Of a stretch of 32,000 nucleotides of DNA, positions 8,049 to 24,267 are shown piece by piece (within the stretch, counting starts at the first letter, position 1; each line of letters opens with the position of its first letter). The notes beneath the pieces are model-generated. The model did not search any database. It was not told the origin of the DNA and saw only the letters and a program-made list of their open reading frames with translations. Made by a program: the position numbers and the translations under genes. The DNA is from Candidatus Lokiarchaeum ossiferum (GTDB lineage: Archaea; Asgardarchaeota; Lokiarchaeia; Sigyniarchaeales; Promethearchaeaceae). The stretch is taken from assembly GCA_025839675.1 (NCBI GenBank), contig CP104013.1:120001-152000 (forward strand), in the 5' to 3' direction.

Positions 8049-9278
8049 ATGAATATGAACAAAATTGAACTCTTGGCCCCTGCTCAGAATAAGAAATCAA
8101 TTAATGCGGTAAAAAATTTTGCCAATGCAGTTTATTTTGGGACTGAAGCTCTTAATATGAGGATGAATGCAGATAATATTTCCTTACAATCTTTGCCAGA
8201 TTTTATTTCTCTCTGCCACTCTTATAATATAAAAGCATATATGACCACAAATGTAATTATCTATGAGAATGAATTGGAATATTTGGAAAAAATTATCACA
8301 ACCGCCAAAGATGCTAACGTGGATGCACTTATTCTTCATGATATGGCAACTCTCGAACTTGCGAGAGAGGTTGGGATCCCATTTCATATTTCTACTCAAG
8401 CAAGTGTTTCGAATTCGAGAGCGGCTCAATTTTACGAAAATCTTGGAGCGGATCGGATTATTCTCGCTCGTGAATGTTCCTTAAATCAAATGAGAGAAAT
8501 CGGAAAAAAACTGTCCAGAGCAAAAATTGAAGCTTTCGTTCATGGGGCGCAATGTACTTCAGTCTCCGGACGATGTTATTTTTCAGCTTATGTGAATAAC
8601 GATCCAATCTGCTCGGCAAATCGTGGGAAATGTTTACAACCATGTCGCCATGAGTGGACCTTAACTCATAAAAATGGGACCGTGATTGATCAGCACCAAG
8701 GTTTCTTCCTCAATTCAAAAGATATGTGCATGATTGAACATGTTCCAGAATTAATTGAAGCAAATATTGCCTCCTTGAAAATTGAAGGGCGTATGAGAGA
8801 TCCTCATTATATTGAAACAGTTGCACGATGTTATCGGGAAGCCATAGATAGTCATTATGACAATACAATTTCACAAGAAAAAGTAGAGCAATGGTTGACA
8901 CAATTAAAAAGCGTGTATAATCGAGGGTTTTCGACTGGTTTTTATTATTCTAAACCTGGATCTGAAGATATCTCTGTAGAACGCTCTGGTAATTTAGCCA
9001 CCACCAAAAAAACTCAAATTGGTAGAGTCATTTCCTATTATCGGAAGGTGAAAGTTGCCAAAATCCAACTTAATACCGGAATGTTGAAAATTGGAGATGA
9101 AATCATCATCGAAGGCGCAAAATCTGGATCCTATTTAAATCAAAAGATTACTTCTATGCAAATTAAAATGAAATCAATTACTGAAACCCCTCCTATTACA
9201 GAGGGATCCCAAATTCTCGTTAGCTTAACTGTTGACGAACCAGTCAAACAAGGAGACTGGATTTACCGATACCTTTAG
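8049..9278 (+). CDS. peptidase U32 family protein (probable Fe-S enzyme of the U32 family)
   Basis: The U32 signature EAFVHGAQCTSVSGRCYFS is present, along with LKIEGRMRDPHY. The Cys pattern is C169-x6-C176 ... C195-x3-C199. Confidence 0.85.
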   Translation: MNMNKIELLAPAQNKKSINAVKNFANAVYFGTEALNMRMNADNISLQSLPDFISLCHSYNIKAYMTTNVIIYENELEYLEKIITTAKDANVDALILHDMATLELAREVGIPFHISTQASVSNSRAAQFYENLGADRIILARECSLNQMREIGKKLSRAKIEAFVHGAQCTSVSGRCYFSAYVNNDPICSANRGKCLQPCRHEWTLTHKNGTVIDQHQGFFLNSKDMCMIEHVPELIEANIASLKIEGRMRDPHYIETVARCYREAIDSHYDNTISQEKVEQWLTQLKSVYNRGFSTGFYYSKPGSEDISVERSGNLATTKKTQIGRVISYYRKVKVAKIQLNTGMLKIGDEIIIEGAKSGSYLNQKITSMQIKMKSITETPPITEGSQILVSLTVDEPVKQGDWIYRYL

Positions 9279-9374
9279 ATATCAAATTTTTCCAAAATTT
9301 CGTTTTTAGTCTTTACTCAAAAGTTCATTTATACAATTGGAAATTTTTTGTAATATTTTCAATATTATGTCTTT

Positions 9375-9578
9375 ATGAGTTTTTGTTCGATGTATCTTAA
9401 TATGGCCCTTTCAATTCATCTCCCTTTTGATGATCAAATACTCTCCAGCTTTGCAGGAATTGTATCATCTGTCACTAAAACCCCAATTATTCAATCAATT
9501 TATAAATTATTTGAAGAAATCAAAGAAGAAGTCATTTATGAGCTTGATCACCCAGAAGCAGAAAAAATGTGGACTTAA
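9375..9578 (+). CDS. hypothetical small protein
   Basis: This is a 67-aa ORF in otherwise non-coding space. It has no recognisable motif. Confidence 0.25.
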   Translation: MSFCSMYLNMALSIHLPFDDQILSSFAGIVSSVTKTPIIQSIYKLFEEIKEEVIYELDHPEAEKMWT

Positions 9579-9608
9579 TTGAGATCCAAAAAAAAATAAT
9601 ACGTTTTT

Positions 9609-11615
9609 TTAATTCGTTTTTCGTTTTCGTTTTATTACAAAAAGGGATGCCGCTTTCTTAATATCTGATTCATTCAAATTTGTTTTTTTCATACGTAATT
9701 TCAATTGTTCTATAAATTTCTCACATAAGGGAAGACTTAAATCTTCACCCAAAGCTTGAATCTCTTTTTGCAATCTAAGTTCATCAGAAATTTTTTCCCC
9801 ATGAACAATGGCGGAGGGATTATTAAAGGATTCTAAGGGGTTATTTTTCACTTCTGCAGTTGGAGTCGCTTTCTTAATATCTCTTTTAACATTTTTAAAA
9901 TCGTCTTTAATCATCGGCGAACGTTCAAGAGTTAGTGCTTTAGTCCGAGTTTCCCCTACTTTAATACCACTTGGTGATTTCGTTGATGGTTTCTGCTCCA
10001 TTTGTTCATGGATGGTTGGTTTTGGAGGTAATTCTATGGATTTCACATTAATCGGGTTAACGCGATGGGTTTGAATTTTGAATTCATTTACAGGAGTACC
10101 TGGATCCATTTGAGGAATGGGGGTTTTTGGTTCTGAAAAATTGGCTGGAACCTTTGGAAGAGGATGTTCTGAAGCCGAATTTTGATCCAAAGAAGGAAGT
10201 CCTTCAAAAATAGGATTTGAATCTGAAATGTCACTTATTACTGAGTTTTCAATAGAATCTTTTGAAGAACTTACATCGGAATCAATTCCAGTCAAGATTG
10301 GTTTTTTTCCCGATAATCCTGTGAAAAATGGATTAGAATTATCAATTGTGTTTAATATATCGTCTTTATCATCATTTGAATCTGCTAAGTTATCCGATTG
10401 AGTTATTTTCGGAGGCAAAGACGAAATTTGGGGTGTAGAGGGTAAATTAGGGGTTTGAGGTTTGAATGATGAAAGCATAGGTAATTTTCCTTGGCCTGGA
10501 AGTGTTTTTGTTCCTTTAAACGAATCAAAGGATATCTTTTTGGGAGCCTTGATTTTTCTGGCTTCTCGTTCTTCCGCTTCCTGTTTTACTTTTGCTTTTT
10601 CTTCCAATTCATTTATTTTGTTTTTGAAGATTTCGAGATAACTATATTCTTGATAGTCTTCACAAATTTGGATAAGATCTTGTAAAATTGAAATTGCTGC
10701 CTTAAATTCTTCAGTTCCTACGAAATCATTGGCTTGTTGTAATTTTGTCCTAAAATCTGAAGGTAAACTACGTTTTAATCCAATTGTATCACTAAAAATC
10801 GAAGAAAGCTGTTCTTTAATATCAGCATCGGCCAAATCAACTTCAAATATTTTTTTTCCTTTTAATAAGTCATATTTCTCGGTTAGTTGTGGACCAGAAA
10901 CAAAATCAGGACTATTTTTATGGGTCAATATGACTACCCAATTGCTATATTTGCCTTCACGGCGTATGAGATTCAAAAAGAATTTTACTTTTTTATCAGT
11001 TAATTTATTTTGGGAGCCATCTAAGATATAAAATATGAGATCTGAACCTCGTACATAATTATTCCATAAGGGAGAATAATCATCAGATTCGACAAAATCC
11101 CATAAATCAAAGAAGATTTCGCCAAGTTTAACTTGATAATATACTGCAAAGTTCATTATCTTCTTGTCTGGAGTTCCTGTTGCTCCCAAAAAAGAAGCGA
11201 TGCTGGTTTTTCCCGCACCTAAGGGACCCATCAAAGTAAACTTTGGATGAAGAAAATAGTGGGTTTCTTTAATGAAGAGGGTAAATTCTTCTTTTCCAGT
11301 TGTTGGGTTTTTAATTTCCATAGGATCAGAAAAATGTTTAGAAAATAATTTAGCCGCTCGTTCAATTTCTTTTGCAATTATTTTCGGTCGATCGGCCATA
11401 TCGGTGACAAAAATATAAAATACTCCCTTGAACATCCCATAATGAGCCTGAAAATCGAACATTGGTTTACTAAAAACTTTACCCTCCATGGGATTGCTAA
11501 TAAAAGTATCAAGTTTTGTTATTAACAAGTTCATTGTGGCTGAATCGTAAGCTTGACCGAAGAAATGTGAAAAAATCATTTCTTTGTGGTGATATAGGAA
11601 GACTTGTCGTAGCAT
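9609..11615 (-). CDS. multidomain protein: longin-like N-terminal domain + divergent Arf-family-like G domain + coiled coil + long disordered region + basic C-terminal helices
   Basis: The P-loop is GPLGAGKTS (res 130-138). An Arf-like interswitch segment reads LWDFVESDDYSPLWNNYVRGSDLIFYILDGS. Residues 1-100 show a sigma-adaptin/longin-like pattern (FQAHYGMFKGVFYIFVTDMADRPKIIAKEIERAAKLF). Residues ~355-600 are Pro/Ser/Asn/Asp-rich low complexity. Confidence 0.8.
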   Translation of the reverse strand: MLRQVFLYHHKEMIFSHFFGQAYDSATMNLLITKLDTFISNPMEGKVFSKPMFDFQAHYGMFKGVFYIFVTDMADRPKIIAKEIERAAKLFSKHFSDPMEIKNPTTGKEEFTLFIKETHYFLHPKFTLMGPLGAGKTSIASFLGATGTPDKKIMNFAVYYQVKLGEIFFDLWDFVESDDYSPLWNNYVRGSDLIFYILDGSQNKLTDKKVKFFLNLIRREGKYSNWVVILTHKNSPDFVSGPQLTEKYDLLKGKKIFEVDLADADIKEQLSSIFSDTIGLKRSLPSDFRTKLQQANDFVGTEEFKAAISILQDLIQICEDYQEYSYLEIFKNKINELEEKAKVKQEAEEREARKIKAPKKISFDSFKGTKTLPGQGKLPMLSSFKPQTPNLPSTPQISSLPPKITQSDNLADSNDDKDDILNTIDNSNPFFTGLSGKKPILTGIDSDVSSSKDSIENSVISDISDSNPIFEGLPSLDQNSASEHPLPKVPANFSEPKTPIPQMDPGTPVNEFKIQTHRVNPINVKSIELPPKPTIHEQMEQKPSTKSPSGIKVGETRTKALTLERSPMIKDDFKNVKRDIKKATPTAEVKNNPLESFNNPSAIVHGEKISDELRLQKEIQALGEDLSLPLCEKFIEQLKLRMKKTNLNESDIKKAASLFVIKRKRKTN

Positions 11616-11650
11616 TTTTCTAATCTCTTTGTAATATATTTAAATCTATG

Positions 11651-12751
11651 TTAAATATGAATTTTTCTCAAATCCGAAATTTTCTGGCGAACTTGGTCAA
11701 TATAGATATCATCTGTAGGTAATTCAGCTAATAGATCTTTCGCAATAGTTTCAGCTTCTTCAATTAAATGCAAATCTTGAAGTAAATCAATCAGTTGAAC
11801 AGCACTATCGGTTGACAATTTAGCATGGACGATTGGGGGGTCATCTTCGTTTTTACCTGGACACGAAAACCCTTTGATAAAACTAAGAATAGAATCTTTA
11901 ATGGGATTAACAACACTCTCTTCAAGAGGAGCTTGACTTTTAGTTAATTCTTTAACCAATCCCTTGAATCCTTGCATAATGGCATATGGTTCTTTATATA
12001 ATTGAATGCCTCGAATAATACGATTAATTAAATCAATGCAAACTTCATCTGCTTTTAGATATAATGCTGAAACAACCAAAATTATTAAAGATTGTTCCCG
12101 TAAATATTGACTTCGAATATTTTTAATTAAATTATCTTTTGCATAAATTAAAATTTCAATGAGAGATGGTTCTTTGGTTTTTTCGATTACATCTGCCAAA
12201 AATAAAATAATTGTGTTCTTTAAACGGGCATCATTAGTATTACTACCAGTAGAATAGTTAATTAGGACATATTTGATACGTTCGATAGCTTCTTCGATCT
12301 TAGGGGGCTGTTCAACTAATTTATAAAAGGTACTTTCTATTGCACTGGCAATTTTTTCCTGATTATCAATTTGAAAGGGAAAATATCGGGATAATTCAGG
12401 TTGAGGACCTGCTTTAGTTGACGCTTTCTTAGTTCTTCTTCTTGGAGATTTGGTAGCATTCGTTGCTGAAGAATTTGAGGCTTTTTTTTCCTTTTGAACA
12501 AGATTAAGGTCTTGAATTTCATACTCTTTGACCTTCTGAAAAATTAACTTATTGTCTTCCTGCCAAAATGCAAACATGAGAGTTTCATCTTCATTTTCAA
12601 CCAATTGTTCCCGTATTTTCTTAGGGATGGTGATTCCTCCATTCTTTCGCATTTTAATGATTTCTACAGGGTGTTTAGGTAACTTGTTTTTTGTGGGAGG
12701 TTCCTCGCTTACGCTTTTGTTATTTTCTAAATTTTGTTGGTTTTCACCCAT
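11651..12751 (-). CDS. AbrB/SpoVT-domain protein fused to a ~240-aa all-helical C-terminal domain
   Basis: The N-terminus VEIIKMRKNGGITIPKKIREQLVENEDETLMFAFWQEDNKLIFQKV is a typical SpoVT/AbrB swapped-hairpin motif. It is followed by a K/S/T-rich linker and then a helix-rich region. The gene ends 35 nt upstream of the GTPase gene on the same strand. Confidence 0.75.
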   Translation of the reverse strand: MGENQQNLENNKSVSEEPPTKNKLPKHPVEIIKMRKNGGITIPKKIREQLVENEDETLMFAFWQEDNKLIFQKVKEYEIQDLNLVQKEKKASNSSATNATKSPRRRTKKASTKAGPQPELSRYFPFQIDNQEKIASAIESTFYKLVEQPPKIEEAIERIKYVLINYSTGSNTNDARLKNTIILFLADVIEKTKEPSLIEILIYAKDNLIKNIRSQYLREQSLIILVVSALYLKADEVCIDLINRIIRGIQLYKEPYAIMQGFKGLVKELTKSQAPLEESVVNPIKDSILSFIKGFSCPGKNEDDPPIVHAKLSTDSAVQLIDLLQDLHLIEEAETIAKDLLAELPTDDIYIDQVRQKISDLRKIHI

Positions 12752-12863
12752 ACTTAACTTATGTCAACTTCCCACAAATAACTTTTACTGTTCTAAATTA
12801 GTTCATTCCTCAACTTGAAAAACCTTTTTGGGAGTCGTTAATAGTTTTAACTTGTAAATAACC

Positions 12864-13841
12864 ATGACATTCACCGAAGAAGATCTTGTTAGTTATGTTT
12901 CCCGATCTAATATCCCTAAAGAAGCCATGGTTCAATTAAATCAACTTTTATTTAAAGAACTTCAAGAATATTGTGATGTTTGTGAAGATGATCGGATGAT
13001 TTGTGTATTATCCCCTCAATGTCCAAAACGAATTTTATTAAAAGTTCGCATTCAATCGGGGGCAGTAGTCGATGATTTACCAAAATTTTGCTACTCTCAA
13101 GCGGTAAACAACATCAAACGATACTTAAACAAGAATACAACTCTCTATTCTCCGAGAGATGAACTCATTTTTAATGAAGATTTCATTAATATTATGTTTC
13201 CACGTTTACAGAAGAAAATTCTCTCCAACTATAAAAAAGATTTAAAATTAGTTCATGAACTCATAGATAAAAGTAAGATTCCCGCAGTACACCTCGATAT
13301 TCGCCATTCTAATCATGATGTCTTTTATAAAATTCGGACAAAAGATAAGCTAATTCGGGAAGGAACTTTCATTTATGATATTATAGGAGAATTTCTTCTC
13401 ATTTGGTATGAAGAAGCAATATTTTTAAGTAATTTTAAGACTGGAGTTACCATTATTAACGCTAAGAAGGATCCAATTGAGGATTTGAAAATAATCGATA
13501 TTGTGTTTCATACCTATTGCTCAGAACTGAATATCCAAGGATTTACAACCTTAAATAGCGATAAACAAATGAATATTATTTTGAAACTCCCATTTGCCGA
13601 TATTCACGAGGCGAATAAAAGCCCAGAAAAAGGCTTTTTCTATTCACTTATTCAATTTTTACAAGATTACTTTTTTGAAATCACCCTCTCTATTGATCCT
13701 CAAGAGAATTTCGTGCTTTCATTGAAATATCATAATTCCAGTGTCACCTACCGTACGTTCAAGTATAACAATCTAACTTATGAAATCATTCGTCAAACGG
13801 TTCAAATGATCGATGCTTTGAGACGAAATGAAAATAATTAA
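12864..13841 (+). CDS. hypothetical protein (no recognisable domain; N-terminal Cys cluster)
   Basis: This is a 325-aa ORF with normal composition. It carries CDVC-x6-C-x5-C at residues 37-53 (12972-13022). It is divergent from the AbrB-like gene. Confidence 0.65.
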   Translation: MTFTEEDLVSYVSRSNIPKEAMVQLNQLLFKELQEYCDVCEDDRMICVLSPQCPKRILLKVRIQSGAVVDDLPKFCYSQAVNNIKRYLNKNTTLYSPRDELIFNEDFINIMFPRLQKKILSNYKKDLKLVHELIDKSKIPAVHLDIRHSNHDVFYKIRTKDKLIREGTFIYDIIGEFLLIWYEEAIFLSNFKTGVTIINAKKDPIEDLKIIDIVFHTYCSELNIQGFTTLNSDKQMNIILKLPFADIHEANKSPEKGFFYSLIQFLQDYFFEITLSIDPQENFVLSLKYHNSSVTYRTFKYNNLTYEIIRQTVQMIDALRRNENN

Positions 13842-13856
13842 GGAGATAAAAAAAAA

Positions 13857-14957
13857 ATGAGTAATATTATGGAAGAAATCTTCGAGTTTTTAGACAAGAA
13901 TCAAAATGATCAAGCGGTTCAACTCATCAAAGAAAATTTGACCAAAAGAGATCAATCCTTTATTGAAGATTTAGTTCCCAGCTTAGGTATAATCACCAAT
14001 ACTTCCATAGAAGTGGTGGAAGCAATAATGCCCTCTTTATTGGGAATATTAAATTTTGACGATGATGTAATTCGGTATTCTATTATTATTTCGATTAAAA
14101 AGTTTGTAGAAGAACATAAGGAACTAATTTTCCCCTATATTGAAGACTTTCTTAAATACGGGTCTCCAAAAAAGCGCGAAGGGATTTTACTTCTCCTACA
14201 ATATGTGGCTGAAACCGATCCAAAATCAATGGAGCCATATTATGATATTATAATTACCGAGTTGGCCGATTCTGAAGATTATGTTCGCAAAAAAGCCGTA
14301 GAAGTATTACAAGCTATCGGGAAAGAAGATCGAAATGAAATTGAATCACGAATTCTCAAATTTCTCAAATCCATGGAAGAAGAGTCGCAAAAGCAACAAA
14401 ATGGGGAGAATATCCTCAAAGCTGCTGATGAAATTTTAGCTAAAAATACCGAAAATTCCCCTATCGACCCTGTGGATCAAATTCTAATTGATGCTGCTGA
14501 TAAAGTATTAAAAAAAGGGTCCGATGGATCCTCAAAACGTGCACCCGAAGATGAATTAAGAGATGCAGCCGGTAGTGTTCTCAAAGAAATTGTTGATATC
14601 AAATCTCTAGAGAAAATTGAGCTGGAAAAGCGCCAAATGGAAGCCCAATCGAAAGCTTTGAAAGAGAAAATTGAAGAAAATGATCAAAAAATGCAGCTCG
14701 AAAAACTGCAATTGGAAGAGGAACAACGACTTATTGAACAAAAGCGATTGGAACAAGAAAAAGAACGTCTCAAGAAAGAAGTGGAACTGCTCGAAAAGCA
14801 ACAAGAACTTAATAAAGTCAAACAAGAATTAGAACTCAAACGAATTGAAGAAGAAAAAGCTCATATCATCGCTAAAGAAGCCAAAAGGATTCAGAAAAAA
14901 ATGAATCAACTGGAAAAAGAAGGTGATTCTGAGGATGAATTCGAAGAATTACTGTAA
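13857..14957 (+). CDS. HEAT-repeat protein with C-terminal Glu/Lys-rich coiled coil
   Basis: HEAT-like units include DDDVIRYSIIISIKKFV and DSEDYVRKKAVEVLQAIG. Residues ~250-355 form a heptad-like E/K/L/Q coiled coil, followed by an acidic tail. AGGAG lies 8 nt upstream of the ATG, and the gap to the preceding gene is 15 nt. Confidence 0.75.
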   Translation: MSNIMEEIFEFLDKNQNDQAVQLIKENLTKRDQSFIEDLVPSLGIITNTSIEVVEAIMPSLLGILNFDDDVIRYSIIISIKKFVEEHKELIFPYIEDFLKYGSPKKREGILLLLQYVAETDPKSMEPYYDIIITELADSEDYVRKKAVEVLQAIGKEDRNEIESRILKFLKSMEEESQKQQNGENILKAADEILAKNTENSPIDPVDQILIDAADKVLKKGSDGSSKRAPEDELRDAAGSVLKEIVDIKSLEKIELEKRQMEAQSKALKEKIEENDQKMQLEKLQLEEEQRLIEQKRLEQEKERLKKEVELLEKQQELNKVKQELELKRIEEEKAHIIAKEAKRIQKKMNQLEKEGDSEDEFEELL

Positions 14958-15064: not shown

Positions 15065-16405
15065 ATGGGATATATTATGACAAAATTAAAAGCTGTAATA
15101 CTTGCCGCGGGAGAAGGCAAACGGTTAGCTCCTTTAACCGACACCCGCCCAAAACCAATCATTCCAATTGCGGGAAAGCCACTTTTGCAACATACTATTG
15201 AAGCCTTGAAAACCCAAGGTATTGAAGAAATTTTATTGATTGTGGGTTACCGCAAAGAACAAGTTATTGAATATTTTCAAGAAGGCCTTCAATTCGGTGT
15301 GCAGATCACTTATATTGAACAAACCGAATTCTTAGGAACTGGACATGCCGCAAATTTAGCCAAAGATTTTGCGGGATCTGATCCCTTCCTCTTAATTTAT
15401 GGAGATTTATTCATGGATTCTGCAATTTATCACCTTGCCATTCAAAAATTTCAAGAAGACAATTGTGATGGCGTCATCACTGCTAAACAAATGCCCGATC
15501 CAACTAAATGGGGTATTTTAAAAACAGATGTGGGTGGATATTTAGAGCAGTTAATCGAAAAACCATCGGATGATAGATATGGAAATCTCGCAAATGCAGG
15601 AGTTTATTTATTTGATCCTTCGATATTTGAAAGTATCCATGAAACCCCCCTCTCGAGTCGCGGTGAATATGAATTAACTGAATCTATTGAAATTCATCTT
15701 CGCAAGAAAAAGAAATTTGCAGTCGTTGATATCTCTGCTCATTTTTGGAGTGATGTCGGTCACCCATGGCAATTGTTAGACGCCACAAAGCATGTTATCG
15801 AGATGTTGCCCGGAGATCCGGTCACCAAAACCCATTCTCCTCCCGCCCAAGTAATTAATCATGGTGGGAAAGTTGAAGAGGGTGTGACGATCCATGGAAC
15901 TGTGGTTATTGGGAAAAATACCATATTGAAATCTGGCACTTATATTGAAGGACCCGTTATTCTTGGAGATAACTGCACCATTGGCCCTAATTCCTATCTC
16001 CGTCCTTATACTTGTCTTGGTAATGGCTGCAAAGTTGGAAATGGTTCCGAAATCAAAGGGTCGATTATCATGGATAAGACTGCCATCCCGCATCTCTCAT
16101 ACGTGGGCGATAGTATTATTGGAGAAAATGTGAATATGGGGTGTGGCACCATTACAGCTAATTTACGCTTGGATAAAATGCCGATTTCCATGCAAGTCAA
16201 AGAGAAACGGGTTAATACCCATTGTAAAAAACTTGGGACTATTATTGGAGATAATGCTCAACTCGGTATTCAAGTCAGCATTATGCCGGGCAAAACCATT
16301 GGGGCTAATGCCTATGTCGGCAGTAATACGATTGTTACTGAAAATGTCCCTGCTGATTCGATATATTATATGAAAGTTCAAAATAAAATAATTATAAAAA
16401 CTTAA
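15065..16405 (+). CDS. bifunctional sugar-1-phosphate nucleotidylyltransferase/acyltransferase, GlmU-like
   Basis: The N-terminus LAAGEGKRLAPLTDTRPKPIIPIAGKPLL is an NTP-transferase motif. The C-terminal ~180 aa consist of hexapeptide (left-handed beta-helix) repeats. The start could alternatively be ATG 15077. Confidence 0.85.
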   Translation: MGYIMTKLKAVILAAGEGKRLAPLTDTRPKPIIPIAGKPLLQHTIEALKTQGIEEILLIVGYRKEQVIEYFQEGLQFGVQITYIEQTEFLGTGHAANLAKDFAGSDPFLLIYGDLFMDSAIYHLAIQKFQEDNCDGVITAKQMPDPTKWGILKTDVGGYLEQLIEKPSDDRYGNLANAGVYLFDPSIFESIHETPLSSRGEYELTESIEIHLRKKKKFAVVDISAHFWSDVGHPWQLLDATKHVIEMLPGDPVTKTHSPPAQVINHGGKVEEGVTIHGTVVIGKNTILKSGTYIEGPVILGDNCTIGPNSYLRPYTCLGNGCKVGNGSEIKGSIIMDKTAIPHLSYVGDSIIGENVNMGCGTITANLRLDKMPISMQVKEKRVNTHCKKLGTIIGDNAQLGIQVSIMPGKTIGANAYVGSNTIVTENVPADSIYYMKVQNKIIIKT

Positions 16406-16530: not shown

Positions 16531-19500
16531 TCAATCATCCCTTGAGAGATAACTTGCATAATCTTTCTTCTGGTCCCCTAATACTAAAAATCCTAGCATG
16601 CTTATAGTTCCCAAAAGTAAAATTCCAAGTACAACTAAAAATTCTCTCACGTTAAAAATAATTGGAAGGTTTAAATTCGAAACATCTCGTATTCCAGAAT
16701 AGGTTGCAACTTTTAATAGACTAGCTGTCCAAGCATATCCTGTTAATAACCCTATGGTTGTTCCGATGATATAGGAACTAAAAATGACAAATATCATTTG
16801 AGTTATGATCAGAATGGAAATATTTTTTTTCCCAAATCCTTGTATAAGTAGTAACCCATGATATCGTTGATTTTCTTTCCGATATAGCAAGATTAGAATG
16901 ATTATACTTAGTACTAAAAAGAAAGTTAGTAAAGTCAGTTCAATATAGACCGGATAGAATTCCGTAATAACACCTCCATGAGGTGAAAATATGCGCGTGG
17001 TTCCATCATCAATGTCTGTGGCAGTCTTAATTTCAAGTGAATAAGAATAAATTGCTGATATTTCTTGCATTGGGCAAATTGACTTTAATTCACTTAATTC
17101 AAAATGACTCGATAGATTTTTTTCAATAACACCCATGAAATTCAGGGTATCATGAGAGATTTTATCTTCTGGATTAATAAAAAATGCTATATCTGCAAGA
17201 ATTTCTATATTTCCGCCATATGAATAGGTAATTCCAGGAATAAGACCAATAGTATCAATAATTTTTATTGATAGCGTTGATTGATTTGCAAAAGATTCCG
17301 TAAAGGGAAATAGTTTAGGATTTAAAGTAAAAACATCTCCAATCTTGTATTGATTATAATCTAAAAATTCCTCTGTCACTAAGACTCCTAAATCTTCATT
17401 GCTATTGACGTTATAATCCATGGTTTTTCGAATTTTTGAACTTAAATCGGGCATACTGGATTGGAGACTGCTCGATTGGGCTAAAACTTCAAACTTAGTG
17501 AAATTAGAAAGCACAAGTGTATCATATTCATAACGGTTTCCAGCACTCAAATCACTTTGGGATATAATTGAAGTGGCCCAAACATCTTGGATATCCTCAG
17601 AATAATAGGATCTATTTGAGAGGATGTTTTCAATTGTGATTAATTCTTCATAAGTAATAGTTTGATTCCCATCCCTCATATAGCTCCAATCATTTTGTGC
17701 CTGAATGTTAAAATCCCCCCCCAAAATTGCGTTATCAATCACTGGATTTCTTACCATATTTGAATTAAGGGATATGTTTGTAAAAATGAAAGTGCCGGAA
17801 ATTATCGCTAATAGAATGGAAATTACTTTAAGATTATGGTAGCGTAATGTCTCGAGGGCATTTAATAACCCTTTTTCTCCAAGGAAAATTTTTGTAAATT
17901 TTTCACATATATTTGCATATAACAATGGTTTTTCAAAAACTAACCACCGCATTAGTCCATATATGATTAAAAATGGGCTGAAAAACGCTAGTACGACTAA
18001 GATATTATTATAACTATTTAATGTTTGCGCGAAAAATGCTATATTATCCATTTTTGAATAATATCCCCATTGAATTGAATAGATTAAGATCACTGGAATC
18101 CACCCGATAAAAAACAGCGGTAATCCAAATCTTTTGATGTTCTTTTTAAATTCATAATCAAGCGATTTATAGAGTTCTAGTTTAGATTCTCTTAAAAATT
18201 TAGATTTTTCTGTAATTGAAGTCTCATTTGGTGTATATTTTGCATCATTAAAAGAAGGCTGAGGTGGGGTTTTCTCTTTCTTTCTTTTCTTTTTCTTTTT
18301 CTTCTGTTGAGATAATAATAAATTTTCATTCAGTTGAGCATTTAACCCTAAAGTTTTGACAGATTCAGAAATTTCATAAATTTTTACCTTTTGAAATTGA
18401 ACAATCATTTTAAGATATATTAAAGCGACAACCAAAGTACTCATGCCAATACTCCCTAATATTAGTCCAAAATTCAGAGTAAATTCCAAATATGATGTGG
18501 GAGGATATAATCTAACAAATTCAAAGTTACCTTCACTATTGCCCCCTGATGATCTCGCAAAAAGTAATGGATTTAATCCAACTTGAATAGGTTTATAAAA
18601 AATCCAACTGAAAAGAATACTTCCTAAACCAACAACAATTCCAATTATGAAGATCTCCCAAATTAATTGAATGTTTATCATTTTGCGGGGATAACCTTTG
18701 ATTAAGGACTCATGATACGAAGATAATCGGGAAGTAAAAGATGTTTTTACTAGTAAATTTCCCACGATGATTGCACACATCAATAGAGGGACATTTAGTA
18801 TTTGATAAGTATATAGCATTTCAGATGAATTTATGAGCTCTCTAAATGTTTGATGCATATCCGTTGTTAATCTAACTGTATCTGATATATGGGAATAATA
18901 GAAAGATGACCATTTTTCTTGAAAATTCTGTAGTTCTTTCTCTATTCTATTTGGATTAATCGTGCCACGATCATATTGATAACCAAATCCATTGCTTTGT
19001 TTCCAAGGATATGTTGAATTCATTGGTAAAGAAGAATAGGTTGAATTCAAGAGATTTATGTAGGGATTTGACGCAACTGCATTTTGATCTATAACCCCTA
19101 ATATCACTGCCCGGTTCCATATTTGATAAGTGGCACTGGTTATTGAATCAACAGAATTGAAATCATAATAAAACTGTAAAGAATAATTAAAAAACCTGAT
19201 CATACTCTGTTTAGGGGCAAAAATTCCGACAATCTGACCGTTTTGTTGATTAAAATTAAGGTTGCGTAAAATTTGGGAAGAGTTTTGTTTATTGTAGATT
19301 TTAAGAGTTAAATCCCTCGTATCATTGGAAAAAAAGCCAATTTTTTCCGCTGAAACTATGTCAATTATATATTCGGATGAATTTTGAGGTTTTTTTCCTT
19401 CTATCATCTCAAAATCTCTATCAAAATCGGGTGTATTGTAAAAACCTTCATCTGAGAAAAAAAAATCCAAATACTTTGAAGGATCGATTTTATCATCAAT

Positions 19501-19842
19501 TGATGAGAGTCGAATAAAATCATTCGCCATATAGAATATGGGATGACTTGATTCAATGGGAAAATCCGAAATGACATCAGCATTTATGCCAGAATTATTT
19601 CCAAAAATTTCTTGGTTAACAAGGAGGTTTGGACTACCTCCAGTCGAATGATATACTCCAATATCAAAATAATTATACTTTAGGTTATTTATTTTGTATA
19701 GCTTCACGTTATGAACATAAATATTCATGACGCTTAACATTGCTAAAATCATCGCTAATCCTACGATTAATAAGGGTGTTCGCTTGACATTTTTGAGGGA
19801 TTGGGTAAGATTGTACTTGAATTTAATTGGCATAGGGATCAT
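16531..19842 (-). CDS. ABC transporter permease, FtsX/MacB-BceB-like, internally duplicated (about 10 TM, two large extracytoplasmic domains)
   Basis: The N-terminal motif LTQSLKNVKRTPLLIVGLAMILAM is typical of the FtsX family. Two TM triplets each follow a ~300-aa sequon-rich soluble domain. The gene is last in the operon with the ATPase. Confidence 0.8.
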   Translation of the reverse strand: MIPMPIKFKYNLTQSLKNVKRTPLLIVGLAMILAMLSVMNIYVHNVKLYKINNLKYNYFDIGVYHSTGGSPNLLVNQEIFGNNSGINADVISDFPIESSHPIFYMANDFIRLSSIDDKIDPSKYLDFFFSDEGFYNTPDFDRDFEMIEGKKPQNSSEYIIDIVSAEKIGFFSNDTRDLTLKIYNKQNSSQILRNLNFNQQNGQIVGIFAPKQSMIRFFNYSLQFYYDFNSVDSITSATYQIWNRAVILGVIDQNAVASNPYINLLNSTYSSLPMNSTYPWKQSNGFGYQYDRGTINPNRIEKELQNFQEKWSSFYYSHISDTVRLTTDMHQTFRELINSSEMLYTYQILNVPLLMCAIIVGNLLVKTSFTSRLSSYHESLIKGYPRKMINIQLIWEIFIIGIVVGLGSILFSWIFYKPIQVGLNPLLFARSSGGNSEGNFEFVRLYPPTSYLEFTLNFGLILGSIGMSTLVVALIYLKMIVQFQKVKIYEISESVKTLGLNAQLNENLLLSQQKKKKKKRKKEKTPPQPSFNDAKYTPNETSITEKSKFLRESKLELYKSLDYEFKKNIKRFGLPLFFIGWIPVILIYSIQWGYYSKMDNIAFFAQTLNSYNNILVVLAFFSPFLIIYGLMRWLVFEKPLLYANICEKFTKIFLGEKGLLNALETLRYHNLKVISILLAIISGTFIFTNISLNSNMVRNPVIDNAILGGDFNIQAQNDWSYMRDGNQTITYEELITIENILSNRSYYSEDIQDVWATSIISQSDLSAGNRYEYDTLVLSNFTKFEVLAQSSSLQSSMPDLSSKIRKTMDYNVNSNEDLGVLVTEEFLDYNQYKIGDVFTLNPKLFPFTESFANQSTLSIKIIDTIGLIPGITYSYGGNIEILADIAFFINPEDKISHDTLNFMGVIEKNLSSHFELSELKSICPMQEISAIYSYSLEIKTATDIDDGTTRIFSPHGGVITEFYPVYIELTLLTFFLVLSIIILILLYRKENQRYHGLLLIQGFGKKNISILIITQMIFVIFSSYIIGTTIGLLTGYAWTASLLKVATYSGIRDVSNLNLPIIFNVREFLVVLGILLLGTISMLGFLVLGDQKKDYASYLSRDD

Positions 19843-19890
19843 TGGTTTTAAATTGCTTTAGGATATGTTTTTTACGAAAAAAGACTAAAT

Positions 19891-20934
19891 TCAATTAGGA
19901 TTATGCATATCATGCTTGAGATTAAAAATACCTCCAAATTCGTAGGTAATTTTATGACATTCAAGACAAGCCACAGAAATACGACTAACAATTTGCTGAT
20001 TATGGTTGTACATCGCTCCAGCTTCTCTGTCATAATTTTTAATTATATTGGTTGATTGACAATTAGGACACTGGGATATATCGGAATATAGAGGATAATT
20101 TTGTGGACCATTTATTATAAAATGTGCTTCTTTTTGTTTGCGAGTAATTTTAGAAATTGAAGTTTCCTCTTTAACTTCAATATCATCCTCATTTTCATCT
20201 TGAGCTAATCGACCGTATTCTTTAACTATTTCCCCATCTTTCAAGATCATAGTTCTATCAGCGATCTTGCGAAAAGCGCTATCATGGGTCACAATAACCA
20301 TGGCTTTATCTGGATTATCAGCTAAGGCTTTCTTAAAATACTGCATGATTTTTTCCGCAGAAATGGAATCAACATTCCCCGTTGGTTCATCAGCAATAAT
20401 TATATCTGGATCATTTGCAAAAGCTTGAGCTATTGCAATTCTTTGCTTTTCCCCTCCTGAAAGCGCAAAAGGGCGATGTTTTGCACGATCTTCCATCCCA
20501 ACTTCTTTTAATAGTGCTTCAACTCTTTCTTGCCGCTCTTTTTTTGGTACTTTTGCCACAATCATGGGCATCTCTATATTTCCAGCTGCAGATAGTGTCG
20601 GGATTAAGTTAAAAAATTGAAACACTATTCCTATATGGTTTTGCAAGAGGTCTTGTATTCCTGCATCCTTCAGACGATTTACTTCTAGATCGTTTACTAA
20701 AATCGTCCCCGAAGATGGACGGGAAATTCCTGCCAGTACATGTAAAAGAGTCGTTTTGCCAGATCCGCTGGGACCCATAATAACAATTAATTCTCCCGGA
20801 TAAATATTTAGGCTAATATTTTTCAATGCCATGACCTCATTTTGACCTTGTTTAAAGATTTTATATACTTCTGAAAGCTTAGCAACGGGTTGAGTTTTGG
20901 AATTTGTTCGATGATTTGGTAAAGTTTCTGTCAT
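19891..20934 (-). CDS. ABC transporter ATP-binding protein (MacB/LolD-like) with C-terminal zinc-ribbon extension
   Basis: Motifs seen are Walker A GPSGSGKTT, Q-loop, signature LSGGEKQR, Walker B IIIADEPT and H-loop VTHD. The tail carries CPNC...CLEC. I prefer ATG 20934 over the track's TTG at 20964. Confidence 0.9.
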   Translation of the reverse strand: MTETLPNHRTNSKTQPVAKLSEVYKIFKQGQNEVMALKNISLNIYPGELIVIMGPSGSGKTTLLHVLAGISRPSSGTILVNDLEVNRLKDAGIQDLLQNHIGIVFQFFNLIPTLSAAGNIEMPMIVAKVPKKERQERVEALLKEVGMEDRAKHRPFALSGGEKQRIAIAQAFANDPDIIIADEPTGNVDSISAEKIMQYFKKALADNPDKAMVIVTHDSAFRKIADRTMILKDGEIVKEYGRLAQDENEDDIEVKEETSISKITRKQKEAHFIINGPQNYPLYSDISQCPNCQSTNIIKNYDREAGAMYNHNQQIVSRISVACLECHKITYEFGGIFNLKHDMHNPN

Positions 20935-20970
20935 TTTTATCACATTTTTTTTTGGTTTTTTCAATCTATT

Positions 20971-23900
20971 TCACTGCTTAGTATAAGCAAAAAAAGAATC
21001 CATTCTTTGTGTTTTGAAAAAAATAGTATAAAGAAGAATCGATCCCACAAAAATTGATGCCAAATTGATTCCTAAAAGAGGCCAATTAATCAAAATGGGG
21101 TATTTTGCCACTGATAATTTAAATTGCCAGTTTTCTTCCACCAGTAATTGTGCAGGGTAGATTTTAAGGGCGAGAATTATTGGTGCAATTACTGTTATAA
21201 GTGCAATTCCTAATGAAATAAGGAAAAATAGCAGCAATTGACTGAGTCCAAATAGATACACTTGTTTTCTACTTACTCCTCGGGTTAACAAATTTCCGTA
21301 GAAATTAAAATTATCTCGAGTGTTTTGGATGAAAAGTATTCCTTGCCCAAAACAAAGAGTAAATCCTATCAACAACAGGCTGTACAGGGAATAACCTGAT
21401 TTTGTATTGAACACTGCAAAAGATGATGAATAAGCTAAATAACTATAATCCATTTCTCGAATTTCATAATTAGCTGTATTATTTGCAAGGAACGTATTTA
21501 CATTTGAATTTTCTTGGATTGAATGTTTCCCTTTTTCTTCCAAGTTGCCCATAAAAACATAATTATGGGCTAAAATGGAACAATTTTCTTGAGAAATCGC
21601 ATTTACGTCTATGAAAAAACTACTATCCCTTTCCCAAGATGATATTGCATCATAGACACCGGGAAACAAAACGGTTCTGGCAATGAATTCACATTCCAGC
21701 CATGTTGATTCTATTTGCATGCTTGTAAAATTAAAGTAAGTTAAATTCACAAAATACGGAGGATTATCCTTGATATTCTCACTATACTCATAATAGTTCC
21801 CGACTATAATCCCGATCTTGGAATTAGTGGGATCTTCATTATAACTAATCGTTTTTTGGATCGATTTTATTAAATCTCGTGTGGGAAGATATTGATCTCG
21901 GGCCGAATTTAAGGAAAGATATTCAGAATAGTTCAAATAGAACAATTCACGCTCAAATTTGGCTTCGCTTTCTGTACTGGAATATACCTCGGCTTTTTGG
22001 GATAGGATGCAAAGATGATTTTCTAAATCGAGTTTTTCGTCTTGAAATACAACGCTAAGATTTTTGTCAAAATCAAAAACTCCTTTCTGAAATGCCAGAT
22101 TTTCAGGCCCTATATTGATATCAATTGCAATATCCGCCCCAATTCTTCCATTGTCAATCATCATAGGATAACTCGCGCTGGATGTGACAAAGGGGTTCAA
22201 AATTAAAATTGATGTTACATAAACCGATATCAAAATTATAATATAACGAAATTCTTTTCGTCGAATCATTTCCAAGCCTACAAGATAATTAATTTCCTTA
22301 TGGAATGGTTTTGATAAGAATTTGCTCAGCTTGGCAAATCTTCGAGGTGATTCAACAATCAGAAATCTATAAAAGCCATATCCTACAATAAAAATCGGGA
22401 ATATTGCACCAAACACAAGATATAAAGTTGGTTCGGAGTAAATTCTAATCACAGTCCATCTTAAATTATCCGATACTTCATGGTTTCCTGAATAGATTGC
22501 CAGTCCATAAATAAAAATTGGAATCAAAATAAAGGGGAAAAGAAAATAAGATATTTTTCGTATCTTTTTTTCTTCCCCTTCGACACTATCCTCATATTTT
22601 TCTTCGTTTTTACTTTGTTTTCGCTTTTCTACTTTCTCTTTTCCATAGGTTGAGTTCTCATCATAAATCCCTGCCAAATATTCTTGATTTTGCAACTCAT
22701 AAATATCCTGAATTTCAGTTTTCTTTAGAATTTTTAAAAGATGACTGTAGGCAATGCCTATTATAATAAATCCAAATAAAAATGTTATTCCTAACCATAA
22801 AGGGTTAACTACCAGTTTAATATCTTGGGGTTCTAATGTAGGGAAAAATAATGGTGTCAAAGTGGTCCGTATCGGATAGAAGAGGATCATTCCGAGTAAA
22901 ACACTAATTATCATGCTTATTAAACTCAAAATAATTATTTCTTGAATTATTTGAGCCGTAATTTGTTTTTTGGTCATTCCCTTAATCGACATTTGCAGAA
23001 AATTGCTTAATCGAGCTTCTTCCGCGTTCTTCATGCTAAAATAAGTAATTAAGAACGTAAAAAGTATTAAGGGGAGATTAATGGCTATACTTAGAAATCT
23101 TGTTGAATAAATATAAGATCTTAGACGCAATATCGAATCTCCATAGGTTCGGGTATAAATTTCATGAGAAAATTCTTTTTGCAAGAGCTGATGAACTTTA
23201 GTGATTCGATTCTCGTAGGAAATGATTTGATTGTAGTTGATGCTATCAAGCTTAGCCATCAGTGATATTCCATAGTGAATAAGATTTTCAACGTTCTCAC
23301 TTAATCCAAAATTTATGTCATTTACTGCATCATATAAAGATTCATTATGAACAATGGAGTCATAAAATTGGTATACTGGATGATTTCCCAAGCTTGTTTG
23401 TGAAAAATTGGAATAAAAAAAGAGCGGAGCATCCCCAAAATATCCCAGATTGTCTGTTTCTCCTTCTAAAATTTTTTGATAGGTTAAATCCATTTGACAT
23501 TGGTCTCCATTTAGTTCTATAATTCTTGAGGAAAAAGCGTAAAAACCAACGATTTTTGTGGATTCGAGCTGCATTGTATTAACAATCGTATCTATTTCAG
23601 GAAATGTGATATTCAGTTTGTTAGATGTTGGATCTAAATCAATTTGAGGGTGTGAATAGTTTCCGATGAAATAGGTTAGATCATAGGAATCATTCAACTC
23701 ATACTTACTTTGCAATTTATATGTATAGGGTACTAACACTTCATTTTCGGTTTGAGGTACTCGACCTTCGATAATTTTGAAATTCGTGGTAAACCTTTCA
23801 TTTTGGTAATATTCTTCTGAATATAACAAAAAATTGATTCTGGGCAGAAAAAACTCGTAAATTCCATGGAAATCGTACACATCCGTCAAATTTACTCTCG

Positions 23901-24267
23901 CTCCAAAATTACTCCAATGGGATCGAAAATTCAAATACGGGAATGTGTTGAAATCTTTTAGTAAATCTTGATTTTCAGGAGAATTTTCAGAAACCGTCAC
24001 GAATTGATCTTGAAAACTTTCTATATCATTTGCAATATTATCTGGATTTGGAGATATTGGTTGGGAAGAAGTAACTAAAAATTCTGAATTTGTTTCAAGA
24101 TGAGAGCCAGAATCCTCCGCGATTCCCGATTCAATCATACAATTTGTTGCAAAGATCATTGCCAGTGAAATACTTACGGAGAGAATTATCAAATAGGATT
24201 TTTTTACCCATAAAAACGTGAGTCGAAAGTAGAACGGTATTAAAGATTTCATGATTTTCAATTTCAT
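20971..24267 (-). CDS. ABC transporter permease, FtsX/MacB-BceB-like, internally duplicated (paralog of 16531-19842)
   Basis: At 1098 aa it has the same architecture as the other permease: an N-terminal TM, a large sequon-rich domain, a TM triplet, a charged cytoplasmic loop, a second large domain and a second TM triplet. Its stop is 36 nt from the ATPase ATG. Confidence 0.8.
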   Translation of the reverse strand: MKLKIMKSLIPFYFRLTFLWVKKSYLIILSVSISLAMIFATNCMIESGIAEDSGSHLETNSEFLVTSSQPISPNPDNIANDIESFQDQFVTVSENSPENQDLLKDFNTFPYLNFRSHWSNFGARVNLTDVYDFHGIYEFFLPRINFLLYSEEYYQNERFTTNFKIIEGRVPQTENEVLVPYTYKLQSKYELNDSYDLTYFIGNYSHPQIDLDPTSNKLNITFPEIDTIVNTMQLESTKIVGFYAFSSRIIELNGDQCQMDLTYQKILEGETDNLGYFGDAPLFFYSNFSQTSLGNHPVYQFYDSIVHNESLYDAVNDINFGLSENVENLIHYGISLMAKLDSINYNQIISYENRITKVHQLLQKEFSHEIYTRTYGDSILRLRSYIYSTRFLSIAINLPLILFTFLITYFSMKNAEEARLSNFLQMSIKGMTKKQITAQIIQEIIILSLISMIISVLLGMILFYPIRTTLTPLFFPTLEPQDIKLVVNPLWLGITFLFGFIIIGIAYSHLLKILKKTEIQDIYELQNQEYLAGIYDENSTYGKEKVEKRKQSKNEEKYEDSVEGEEKKIRKISYFLFPFILIPIFIYGLAIYSGNHEVSDNLRWTVIRIYSEPTLYLVFGAIFPIFIVGYGFYRFLIVESPRRFAKLSKFLSKPFHKEINYLVGLEMIRRKEFRYIIILISVYVTSILILNPFVTSSASYPMMIDNGRIGADIAIDINIGPENLAFQKGVFDFDKNLSVVFQDEKLDLENHLCILSQKAEVYSSTESEAKFERELFYLNYSEYLSLNSARDQYLPTRDLIKSIQKTISYNEDPTNSKIGIIVGNYYEYSENIKDNPPYFVNLTYFNFTSMQIESTWLECEFIARTVLFPGVYDAISSWERDSSFFIDVNAISQENCSILAHNYVFMGNLEEKGKHSIQENSNVNTFLANNTANYEIREMDYSYLAYSSSFAVFNTKSGYSLYSLLLIGFTLCFGQGILFIQNTRDNFNFYGNLLTRGVSRKQVYLFGLSQLLLFFLISLGIALITVIAPIILALKIYPAQLLVEENWQFKLSVAKYPILINWPLLGINLASIFVGSILLYTIFFKTQRMDSFFAYTKQ

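Follow-up and report, generated by a model that had tools for sequence, protein, structure and literature searches.

Four adjacent genes of Candidatus Lokiarchaeum ossiferum, with products NEF87_000113 to NEF87_000116, probably work together, and we tentatively propose, as a real possibility short of a likelihood, that they encode parts of one cytoplasmic assembly, specific to Lokiarchaeia and organized on a longin–pseudoGTPase hub. The genes lie in a 32,000-nt stretch of contig CP104013.1 (positions 120,001 to 152,000 of the forward strand), hereafter called the window. We denote the proteins G (the longin–GTPase protein), A (the AbrB-like protein), O (the Cys-cluster "orphan" protein), and H (the HEAT/coiled-coil protein). 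The proposal starts from features that the analysis shows, namely the gene structure, the longin, G and HEAT folds, the degenerate motifs of the G domain, the conserved cysteines of O, and the linkage of the genes through rearrangements.

Linkage of the four genes in other genomes

Orthologs of all four proteins are conserved (homolog searches returned 31 clusters for G, 33 close clusters for O, and 14 clusters in a further search), and profile hidden Markov models of the four families were run on 21 fetched loci, numbered here with the prefix L. The gene for O is followed by that for H in each of the 16 loci where O has a full-length ortholog, and in all of these only 4-203 nt lie between the two genes. 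G and A accompany this O→H pair in at least five different arrangements, and all four genes are found together in three distinct layouts. The layout of the window, ←G←A divergent from O→H→, is shared with Promethearchaeum syntrophicum MK-D1, L006, L020, and L021, and with L013 as far as that locus extends, since it ends before G. In L005, ←A←699aa←H←O is divergent from G→, and in L017, a locus of an abundant "Lokiarchaeota archaeon" lineage, the order is ←G, O→H→, ←A, with consecutive locus tags. L002 has the partial set G→O→H→, and L015 has O→H→686aa→, ←A.

The loci L002, L005, L015, and L017 encode proteins that are only 27-36% identical to those of the window, and their flanking genes are different (a purD/GARS neighborhood). 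Given this low identity, the different flanks, and the varied orders and orientations, the adjacency of the genes has survived reshuffling. We consider this repeated adjacency in different orders to be the main evidence pointing to a functional link. The neighborhood comparison that the earlier note had suggested as a check thus finds the four genes co-localized on many independent contigs, with conserved synteny.

The longin–GTPase protein G

The product of the window gene is 99% identical to L. ossiferum WP_371804417.1 / UYP43828.1 and 42% identical to its ortholog from MK-D1, WP_162306730.1; all clusters of G homologs come from Lokiarchaeia/Promethearchaeota.

An Arf-family-like G domain had been read from the letters of the window, and the profile searches bear this out. 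The window G domain scores above the gathering threshold (GA) of two Pfam families, Arf (25.3 bits, GA 22.3) and Roc (27.1 bits, GA 27), and below that of Gtr1_RagA (17 bits, GA 22). The 60 best matches of the G family profile in PDB are nearly all Arf/Arl proteins (two are unnamed GTP-binding proteins), the best relatives being Arf1/3/6 and Arl8, with E-values from 3e-14. When a profile of the G domain only was scored against reference sequences entered by hand, the values were 48.9 bits for ARF1, 31.3 for SAR1, 27.3 for Rab5, 24.3 for RagA, and 17.9 for HRas. According to these profile comparisons, the G domain is nearest to Arf among the small GTPases.

The nucleotide-binding motifs of this domain are degenerate. 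The P-loop, GPLGAGKT, is intact in the window protein. In switch I, the residue aligned with T48 of Arf1 is Asn or Asp in the G family. In switch II, the window protein has WDFVES where Arf has WDVGGQ, and the family as a whole replaces WDxGGQ by the consensus WDF[IV]xxDxFSPLW, with neither the Gly nor the Gln. At G4, where NKxD is the canonical motif, the window protein reads THKN and most orthologs THxD; NKQD is kept only in the distant clade P0026-P0031. One member of this clade, the distant paralog-like relative P0031, retains both WDFAGQE and NKQD; therefore, the degeneration of the G motifs is derived within the family. In the clade of P0017, P0019, P0021, and P0022, the Lys and Ser/Thr of the P-loop are gone as well and the rest of the protein is kept.

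In small GTPases, switching is driven by the γ-phosphate contacts of the switch-I Thr and of the Gly of DxxG. Because the Thr of switch I and the Gly and Gln of switch II are lost, the G domain looks like a scaffold or pseudoGTPase and not a classical switch. The N-terminal amphipathic helix of Arf is absent: the 122-aa longin occupies the N-terminus, and the G domain starts directly after it. No transmembrane segment, membrane anchor, or lipidation signal was seen in the G protein. A literature search for pseudoGTPases in Asgard archaea returned no reports.

Several further observations concern the G motifs. The window G4 motif THKN (aa 234-237; 10905-10916) has Asn where the guanine-specifying Asp usually sits; in other GTPases, replacement of this Asp by Asn is the classic change that shifts specificity toward xanthine nucleotides. 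The sequences in place of the P-loop in the P-loop-less clade include GPNSSSRQQ, GPSPFDRQK, and GPHDKDRQK. The members of this clade, which include those encoded at L004 7001-9256 and L019 10371-12602, have extra repeats of the NPF motif described below, and it is the same clade in which the A–G pair is apart from the O–H pair.

The longin domain (aa 1-122) was modeled separately by AlphaFold2 (AF2), using an alignment of 15 orthologs. The model has a predicted local distance difference test score (pLDDT) of 94.6 and a predicted template modeling score (pTM) of 0.88, and its topology is ββ-α-βββ-α-α (strands 2-9 and 12-18, helix 25-40, strands 47-52, 55-62, and 65-71, and helices 77-94 and 106-121). 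A Foldseek search of PDB with this model yielded 19 matches at E≤1e-3, every one of them longin-type, with probability 1.0 and template modeling (TM) scores of 0.5-0.68. These matches comprise AP-1/2/3 σ, the N-terminus of μ, SRX of SRα, VAMP7, Sec22b, Bet5/Trs23, and ζ-COP, the σ1, σ2, and σ3 subunits of adaptor protein (AP) complexes being the top ones. At the sequence level, the window protein has no match to the Pfam longin families (Clat_adaptor_s, Longin, SRX), Clat_adaptor_s matches one out of 15 orthologs (E=0.013), and a PDB sequence-profile search with the N-terminus found no longin. Judging by the model, the N-terminus of G is a longin at the level of the fold, undetectable at the level of sequence, and the earlier suggestion of a longin or σ-adaptin-type N-terminus holds in this structural sense.

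The segments that follow the G domain show no roadblock or other Pfam match. The first of them is a helical hairpin or coiled coil without a Pfam family; its assignment as an MIT domain was considered and rejected, since there is no Pfam MIT match and the only signals are one Vps54_N match below its threshold and, in a single paralog, a weak TPR. It is followed by a stretch that is probably disordered, judging by its composition (69% disorder-promoting and 24% hydrophobic residues), and the disordered region of about 250 aa predicted previously does correspond to a hydrophobic-poor stretch of 253 aa. The alignment of this otherwise gappy region contains five conserved motif islands: IKAPKKISFxxFKGxKxLPG; NPFF (aa 428, with NPI at 467); FxIxTHxVxPI; GxTRxKxLTLERSPL; and NPLxxF. 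The C-terminal 63 aa are rich in basic residues (K+R 24%) and have no Pfam family.

The proteins O, H, and A

The AF2 model of O (pLDDT 81.8, pTM 0.81) comprises a helical N-terminal half with the Cys cluster and an α/β C-terminal half. No match at E≤0.001 was found when the model was compared by Foldseek with PDB and BFVD, and a PDB sequence search gave no match. A profile search of 1.84 billion representatives extended the family to 86 clusters at E≤1e-3, the distant members sharing the N-terminal domain only; among ten members that were looked up, the named ones belong to Promethearchaeota and Njordarchaeales, and one is labeled Korarchaeota. Apart from the motif CDVC-x6-C-x5-C, which is indeed present at aa 37-53, O had been described as a protein with no recognizable motif. 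It has no recognizable family either; its relatives form a family of Asgard proteins in which five cysteines are conserved. The cluster is invariant in 31 orthologs, and across the wider family it is retained, together with several neighboring residues, by 52-64 of the 64 representatives that were aligned; this conservation points to a putative metal site. Sub-threshold matches to DUF7026 in 18 out of 31 orthologs are uninformative. The possibility of a longin-like domain within O was rejected, given an hhalign probability of 0.2% and no PDB sequence match. In L014, a metagenome-assembled genome of Njordarchaeia, a 296-aa protein is homologous to the N-terminal Cys domain alone, and the next gene encodes a 1228-aa coiled-coil protein where a HEAT protein would otherwise stand (8001-12582); O-type Cys domains may generally pair with long coiled-coil partners.

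The HEAT assignment of H is supported by its orthologs, in which HEAT_2 and HEAT reach E-values of 1.6e-11 and 2.1e-7, respectively, at best (by itself, the window copy falls slightly short of the HEAT profile cut-offs). The H profile matches in PDB the archaeal HEAT-like protein 2db0 (3.6e-10), CAND1 (7e-9), and designed alphaRep proteins, with E-values for HEAT proteins of 3.6e-10 to 1e-8; adaptins rank lower, AP-3 δ (6.6e-4) and AP-4 ε being at about 1e-3. Adaptin_N matches ten out of ten H orthologs, the best at 2.3e-7 and 30.2 bits (GA 37), covering a part of the profile. By these profile matches, H is a HEAT protein that resembles adaptins only generically and below threshold. The Glu/Lys-rich tail noted before is evident from composition (K+R 23%, D+E 29%) and may form a coiled coil. 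Between the HEAT domain and this tail, three copies of AA[DG]x[IV]L (AADEIL, AADKVL, and AAGSVL; aa 189, 213, and 237; 14421-14582) are possibly a repeated docking motif. The DNA direct repeats D1 and D16 lie at these motifs, and distant H orthologs keep only the last copy.

The A family is present in the window and in L001, L004, L005, L006, L013, L015, L017, and L019-L021. The AbrB domain proposed for its N-terminus receives consistent signals, all of them sub-threshold: TIGR01439 matches A at E=0.002 (17.7 bits compared with a cut-off of 28.3), PF04014 matches four out of six orthologs (best E 0.0057), the three best PDB matches of the N-terminal profile are the archaeal AbrB-family regulators 5itm, 5itj, and 2l66 (E≈0.04), and two databases name the protein SpoVT-AbrB or AbrB-MazE-SpoVT. 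We regard the AbrB call as weak but consistent. The helical domain of A has no Pfam or PDB sequence match, and its candidate paralogy to the HEAT domain of H was rejected (hhalign probability 0.5%).

Gene layout, spacer, and flanking genes

The open reading frame (ORF) listing confirms the four genes, the 112-nt spacer between the two divergent pairs, and the 35-nt (11616-11650, between A and G) and 15-nt (13842-13856, between O and H) gaps, with coordinates exactly as the earlier note gave them (Table 1). The AGGAG that it had placed before the H gene is likewise present (13841-13845, 11 nt upstream of the ATG).

Table 1. Genes, domains, and other features of the four-gene locus (ORF, open reading frame; coordinates are positions in the window).
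Feature	Coordinates	Strand	Basis
G gene, NEF87_000113, 668 aa	9609..11615 (including stop codon)	-	ORF listing
G, longin domain, aa 1-122	11250..11615	-	AF2 model and Foldseek
G, Arf-like G domain, aa 123-280	10776..11249	-	Pfam, PDB profile, motif alignment
G, helical hairpin / coiled-coil segment, aa 283-352	10560..10769	-	conserved in 30/30 aligned homologs
G, low-complexity, putatively disordered region, aa 353-605 (253 aa)	9801..10559	-	composition, alignment
G, basic helical C-terminal domain, aa 606-668	9612..9800	-	conserved family-wide, including distant members
A gene, NEF87_000114, 366 aa, AbrB-like and helical	11651..12751	-	ORF listing
A, AbrB/SpoVT/MazE-like segment, aa 25-80 (VEIIKMRKNGGITIPKKIREQL…)	12512..12679	-	sub-threshold profile matches
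A, family-specific helical domain, aa 115-366	11654..12409	-	conserved in orthologs
Divergent spacer A/O, 112 nt	12752..12863		sequence
O gene, NEF87_000115, 325 aa	12864..13841	+	ORF listing
O, Cys cluster C37-x2-C40-x6-C47-x5-C53 … C76 (with D43, R44, R56, P73, Y77)	12972..13091	+	alignments
H gene, NEF87_000116, 366 aa	13857..14957	+	ORF listing
H, HEAT-repeat domain, aa 1-190	13857..14426	+	Pfam on orthologs, PDB profile
H, Glu/Lys-rich putative coiled coil, aa 250-355	14604..14921	+	composition

The pentamer AACTT occurs five times in the divergent spacer, always on the plus strand (starts at 12756, 12766, 12780, 12812, and 12849), compared with 0.22 occurrences expected from its frequency in the window. 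This repeat was noticed post hoc, and about 3% of 112-nt windows in the sequence contain some pentamer at least four times; the orthologous spacers, when viewed for AACTT, showed no clear conservation. It is possible that the repeat is an operator or promoter element. A 17-nt inverted repeat (12686-12702 and 12766-12782, 88% complementary) brackets the start codon of A, with one arm inside the divergent spacer, and the minus-strand RNA of 12680-12790 folds at -22 kcal/mol (z = -3.27 compared with shuffles); the inverted repeat may serve as a DNA operator or form a structure in a 5' leader. Because an archaeal TATA-like TTTAAATA (11637-11644, minus strand) lies in the 35-nt gap, about 22-29 nt before the ATG of G, the G gene may have its own promoter and may not be co-transcribed with A; such matches are common in AT-rich sequence.

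The flanking genes are ordinary: one side has genes for leucyl-tRNA synthetase, an NHL-repeat protein, and a U32 peptidase, and the other has genes for an aglF-like nucleoside triphosphate (NTP)-transferase and an ATP-binding cassette (ABC)/FtsX transporter. The NTP-transferase/hexapeptide gene (15065-16405) comes after the H gene in every close relative and not in the distant lineages; it is probably outside the module, its position reflecting inherited order. The MK-D1 ortholog of this gene, DSAG12_02719, is among N-glycosylation candidates (PMC11284389). Further downstream, an ABC ATPase gene lies between two very large FtsX-like permease genes encoding 1103 and 1098 aa (16531-24267), the 1103-aa product containing a KKKKKKRKKEK run. 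In the window, this block stands between the module and the S3Ae/S15 ribosomal genes, which in MK-D1 are within about 2 kb of the NTP-transferase gene and in L021 directly adjoin it. Scans for tRNA genes and Rfam families found none in the window, and a scan of the window for bacterial-type promoters and terminators remained at the background level, the models being bacterial and not applicable to archaea.

Additional genes accompany the module in some of the distant lineages. In two of them, an extra gene encoding 686-699 aa lies inside the module (L005 2232-4331, minus strand; L015 6490-8550, plus strand). The encoded proteins contain DUF11 β-sandwich domains (2.7e-12), and Adap_comp_sub scores 31.2 bits in L005 and 19.5 bits in L015 (GA 31.6), the latter match overlapping the generic DUF11 β-sandwich. 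The assignment of the 699-aa protein of L005 as a μ-homology protein was rejected, as phmmer against PDB gave no μ-homology match. In L002, the genes next to G→O→H include one for a 345-aa protein, of which a paralog is encoded 8 kb upstream and a homolog close to the L005 module (L002 11957-12994 and 14347-15450; L005 14976-15557). An actin-family gene lies 4.6 kb downstream of the L002 module on the same strand.

Proposed assembly and alternative explanations

The physical interactions, metal and DNA binding, and cellular role that we infer for the four proteins would be as follows. G would be the hub, its G domain acting as a nucleotide-binding or nucleotide-independent scaffold and not as an on/off Arf switch. 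The longin/G head, the motifs of the flexible region, and the basic C-terminal helical domain could be docking sites for O and H, the flexible-region motifs together with the coiled coil giving multivalent contacts. O and H would form an obligate pair, in which O would probably bind a metal (Zn or Fe-S) and could provide a structural or redox input. A would most likely bind DNA as a dimer and regulate the shared promoter region; alternatively, it would be a dimerizing subunit.

Several observations weigh against such an assembly, and some of them would suit the opposite view that the genes are neighbors only by gene order inherited in related Lokiarchaeia, each acting alone. L007, L008 (Harpocratesius), and L016 carry O→H with no G or A within 8-10 kb. 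In L004, L009, and L019, the pair A→G→ is about 9 kb or more from O→H or is not seen with it; therefore, the two pairs can function apart. The window-type layout often retains the housekeeping flanks as well (the U32 peptidase and the aglF-like NTP-transferase, and in close relatives also S3Ae), and thus a part of the synteny among close relatives is inherited gene order. Further, Asgard genes for GTPases and eukaryotic signature proteins (ESPs) are generally not in operons (PMC10933270; Liu et al., 2021). Two of the functional assignments are also open to objection: the pseudoGTPase call follows from the loss of motifs, and non-canonical GTPases can still hydrolyze; the AbrB assignment of A is below every curated threshold. 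Nevertheless, the distant lineages L002, L005, L015, and L017 again have these families adjacent, in other orders and orientations and with different flanks, and the spacing of O and H stays short in every locus with a full-length ortholog, so that we consider the absence of any functional link very unlikely.

If the genes do act together, their products might instead form a primitive coat or trafficking unit, in which a working Arf-type GTP switch in its GTP-bound state recruits H to a membrane with the longin subunit, in the manner of AP/COPI adaptors. The similarity of the G domain to Arf and of the longin domain to AP σ subunits would fit this, as would the sub-threshold Adaptin_N matches of all ten H orthologs, the near-threshold Adap_comp_sub match (31.2 compared with GA 31.6) of the 686-699-aa β-sandwich protein found in two distant lineages, the conserved NPF-type motif in the G tail, and the basic C-terminus of G, which could bind acidic lipids. 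We rank this explanation low, as distinctly unlikely, because the whole family has lost the Thr of switch I, the Gly of switch II, and the catalytic Gln, and a subclade the P-loop too; because the longin replaces the Arf amphipathic helix, with neither a membrane anchor nor a lipidation signal in evidence; because the HEAT domain is short (about 190 aa) and generic, with 2db0 and CAND1 matching better than adaptins; and because Asgard Arf-like proteins extended by N-terminal domains are described as probably not acting on membranes (PMC11914678). The Adap_comp_sub match in L015, moreover, overlaps DUF11, and the PDB sequence search gives it no support. The related idea that the module is a surviving relative of the ancestor of eukaryotic adaptor/coat cores, in which a σ-like longin is tethered to an Arf-derived domain and combined with an adaptin-like H, sometimes a μ-homology-like β-sandwich protein, and a Cys-cluster subunit lost in eukaryotes, acting on membranes or protrusions, strikes us as a long shot. 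A sensing and transcription module, in which O would sense redox state or metal, G and H would relay the signal as in longin/roadblock–Rag nutrient signaling, and A would be the transcriptional output at the divergent promoter and elsewhere, is doubtful, although it accounts for an AbrB-like DNA-binding motif whose dedicated family accompanies the module, the five AACTT copies in the divergent spacer, the inverted repeat around the start codon of A, and the five conserved cysteines of O. It also conforms to the proposal of Liu et al. that Asgard longin/Rag-like proteins feed prokaryote-type regulatory circuits. However, the AbrB signal is sub-threshold, L002 has no A-type gene near G–O–H, the AACTT repeat is a post hoc observation similar to what some 3% of 112-nt windows show and without clear conservation in orthologous spacers, and the long coiled coil and motif-rich flexible region suggest assembly more than signaling.

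An assembly on a longin–pseudoGTPase hub would be of interest for the following reasons. Small GTPases, longin/roadblock proteins, and HEAT proteins number in the hundreds in Asgard genomes, and the scarcity of operons makes it hard to match partners; this neighborhood is an exception that names three candidate partners for one longin–Arf-like protein. Both Lokiarchaeia in culture, L. ossiferum and P. syntrophicum MK-D1, carry the module, so that the proposed complex is directly testable. If the partners bind in the way σ-adaptin binds on a HEAT trunk, this would bear on the origin of adaptor/coat cores; if they do not, then these "eukaryote-like" folds would serve something else in archaea. 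An Asgard Arf-like lineage turned into a probable pseudoGTPase is noteworthy in itself, as is a widespread Asgard Cys-cluster family unmatched among solved or viral structures.

Comparison with known systems

Longin–GTPase fusions in Asgard archaea have been published previously, as the "LG/LGX" Rag-/Arf-like class (Tran et al., 2024; PMC10933270), as Rag family GTPases with a fused longin (Liu et al., 2021), and as longin-bearing AArfs (PMC11914678). The MK-D1 ortholog of G, WP_162306730.1, is itself listed as "LGX" (PMC10933270). The domain order is the same, with an N-terminal longin, a small G domain, and extra C-terminal parts. The published studies describe the architecture only, whereas G has conserved neighbor genes, and its G-domain motifs are degenerate, with no switch-I Thr and no DxxGQ. 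Longin and roadblock domains are platforms for small GTPases (PMC10933270), and for Arf-like proteins of Asgard archaea that carry an extra N-terminal domain, such as longin, action on membranes has been considered improbable (PMC11914678). The signature families enriched in L. ossiferum include "Adaptin N heat repeats," Arf-like GTPases, and longin domains. Most genes for Asgard GTPases and ESPs lie outside operons and conserved neighborhoods, the exceptions given being the ESCRT cluster and a LAMTOR1-like/Rab-like/DENN cluster (PMC10933270; Liu et al., 2021). No description of the four-gene neighborhood was found in the literature, and queries with locus tags and accessions returned only the aglF-like neighbor. 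Hence, the claim of the earlier note that no such system had been described does not hold for the longin–GTPase fusion and stands for the neighborhood.

The eukaryotic cores of AP complexes and coat protein complex I (COPI), together with Arf1, likewise combine longin, HEAT, and Arf-like folds, with the σ/ζ longin subunit sitting against a HEAT-solenoid large subunit and Arf1-GTP as the recruiter. Here, unlike in those complexes, the longin and the G domain form one chain, the G domain has neither the switch and catalytic residues nor the amphipathic helix, and the HEAT part of H is about 190 aa and below the Pfam threshold. The trunk of the AP/COPI large subunits is about 600 aa long. The window contains no μ-homology protein and no appendage domains, and the Cys-cluster protein O and the AbrB-like protein A have no counterpart in AP/COPI.

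The signal recognition particle (SRP) receptor pair SRα SRX–SRβ (PDB 1nrj) also joins a longin-type domain with an Arf-related GTPase, and SRX is the sixth-best structural match of the G longin (E 1.2e-4); SRβ groups with the Arf family (preprint). The two parts are fused in G and are separate chains in SRX–SRβ, and G has no SRP-type NG domain, no transmembrane anchor, and neighbors without a link to SRP. SRβ is a working GTPase, unlike the degenerate G domain described here. The pair of AAGAB and AP-1 σ3 (PDB 9ddt), a likeness drawn from the entry title and from general background, similarly places a pseudoGTPase with a σ-type longin. The σ3 chain of this entry is the fourth-best structural match of the G longin domain (TM score 0.68). 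AAGAB, an adaptor-assembly chaperone, is eukaryotic and not fused to a longin. In MglA/MglB and Rag–Ragulator, a small G domain sits on a roadblock/longin platform, and the Foldseek list of the longin model includes, at lower ranks, Rag C-terminal domains and LAMTOR subunits; the topology of G, in contrast, is longin and not roadblock, and ARF1 outscores RagA (48.9 compared with 24.3 bits).

We treat the likenesses to σ-adaptin/HEAT/Arf1, SRX–SRβ, and AAGAB as analogies, with putative homology at the level of the fold only. Compared with all these systems, the conserved partnership of the four genes, the degenerate G domain, and the Cys-cluster family appear to be new, the longin–GTPase fusion itself being known.

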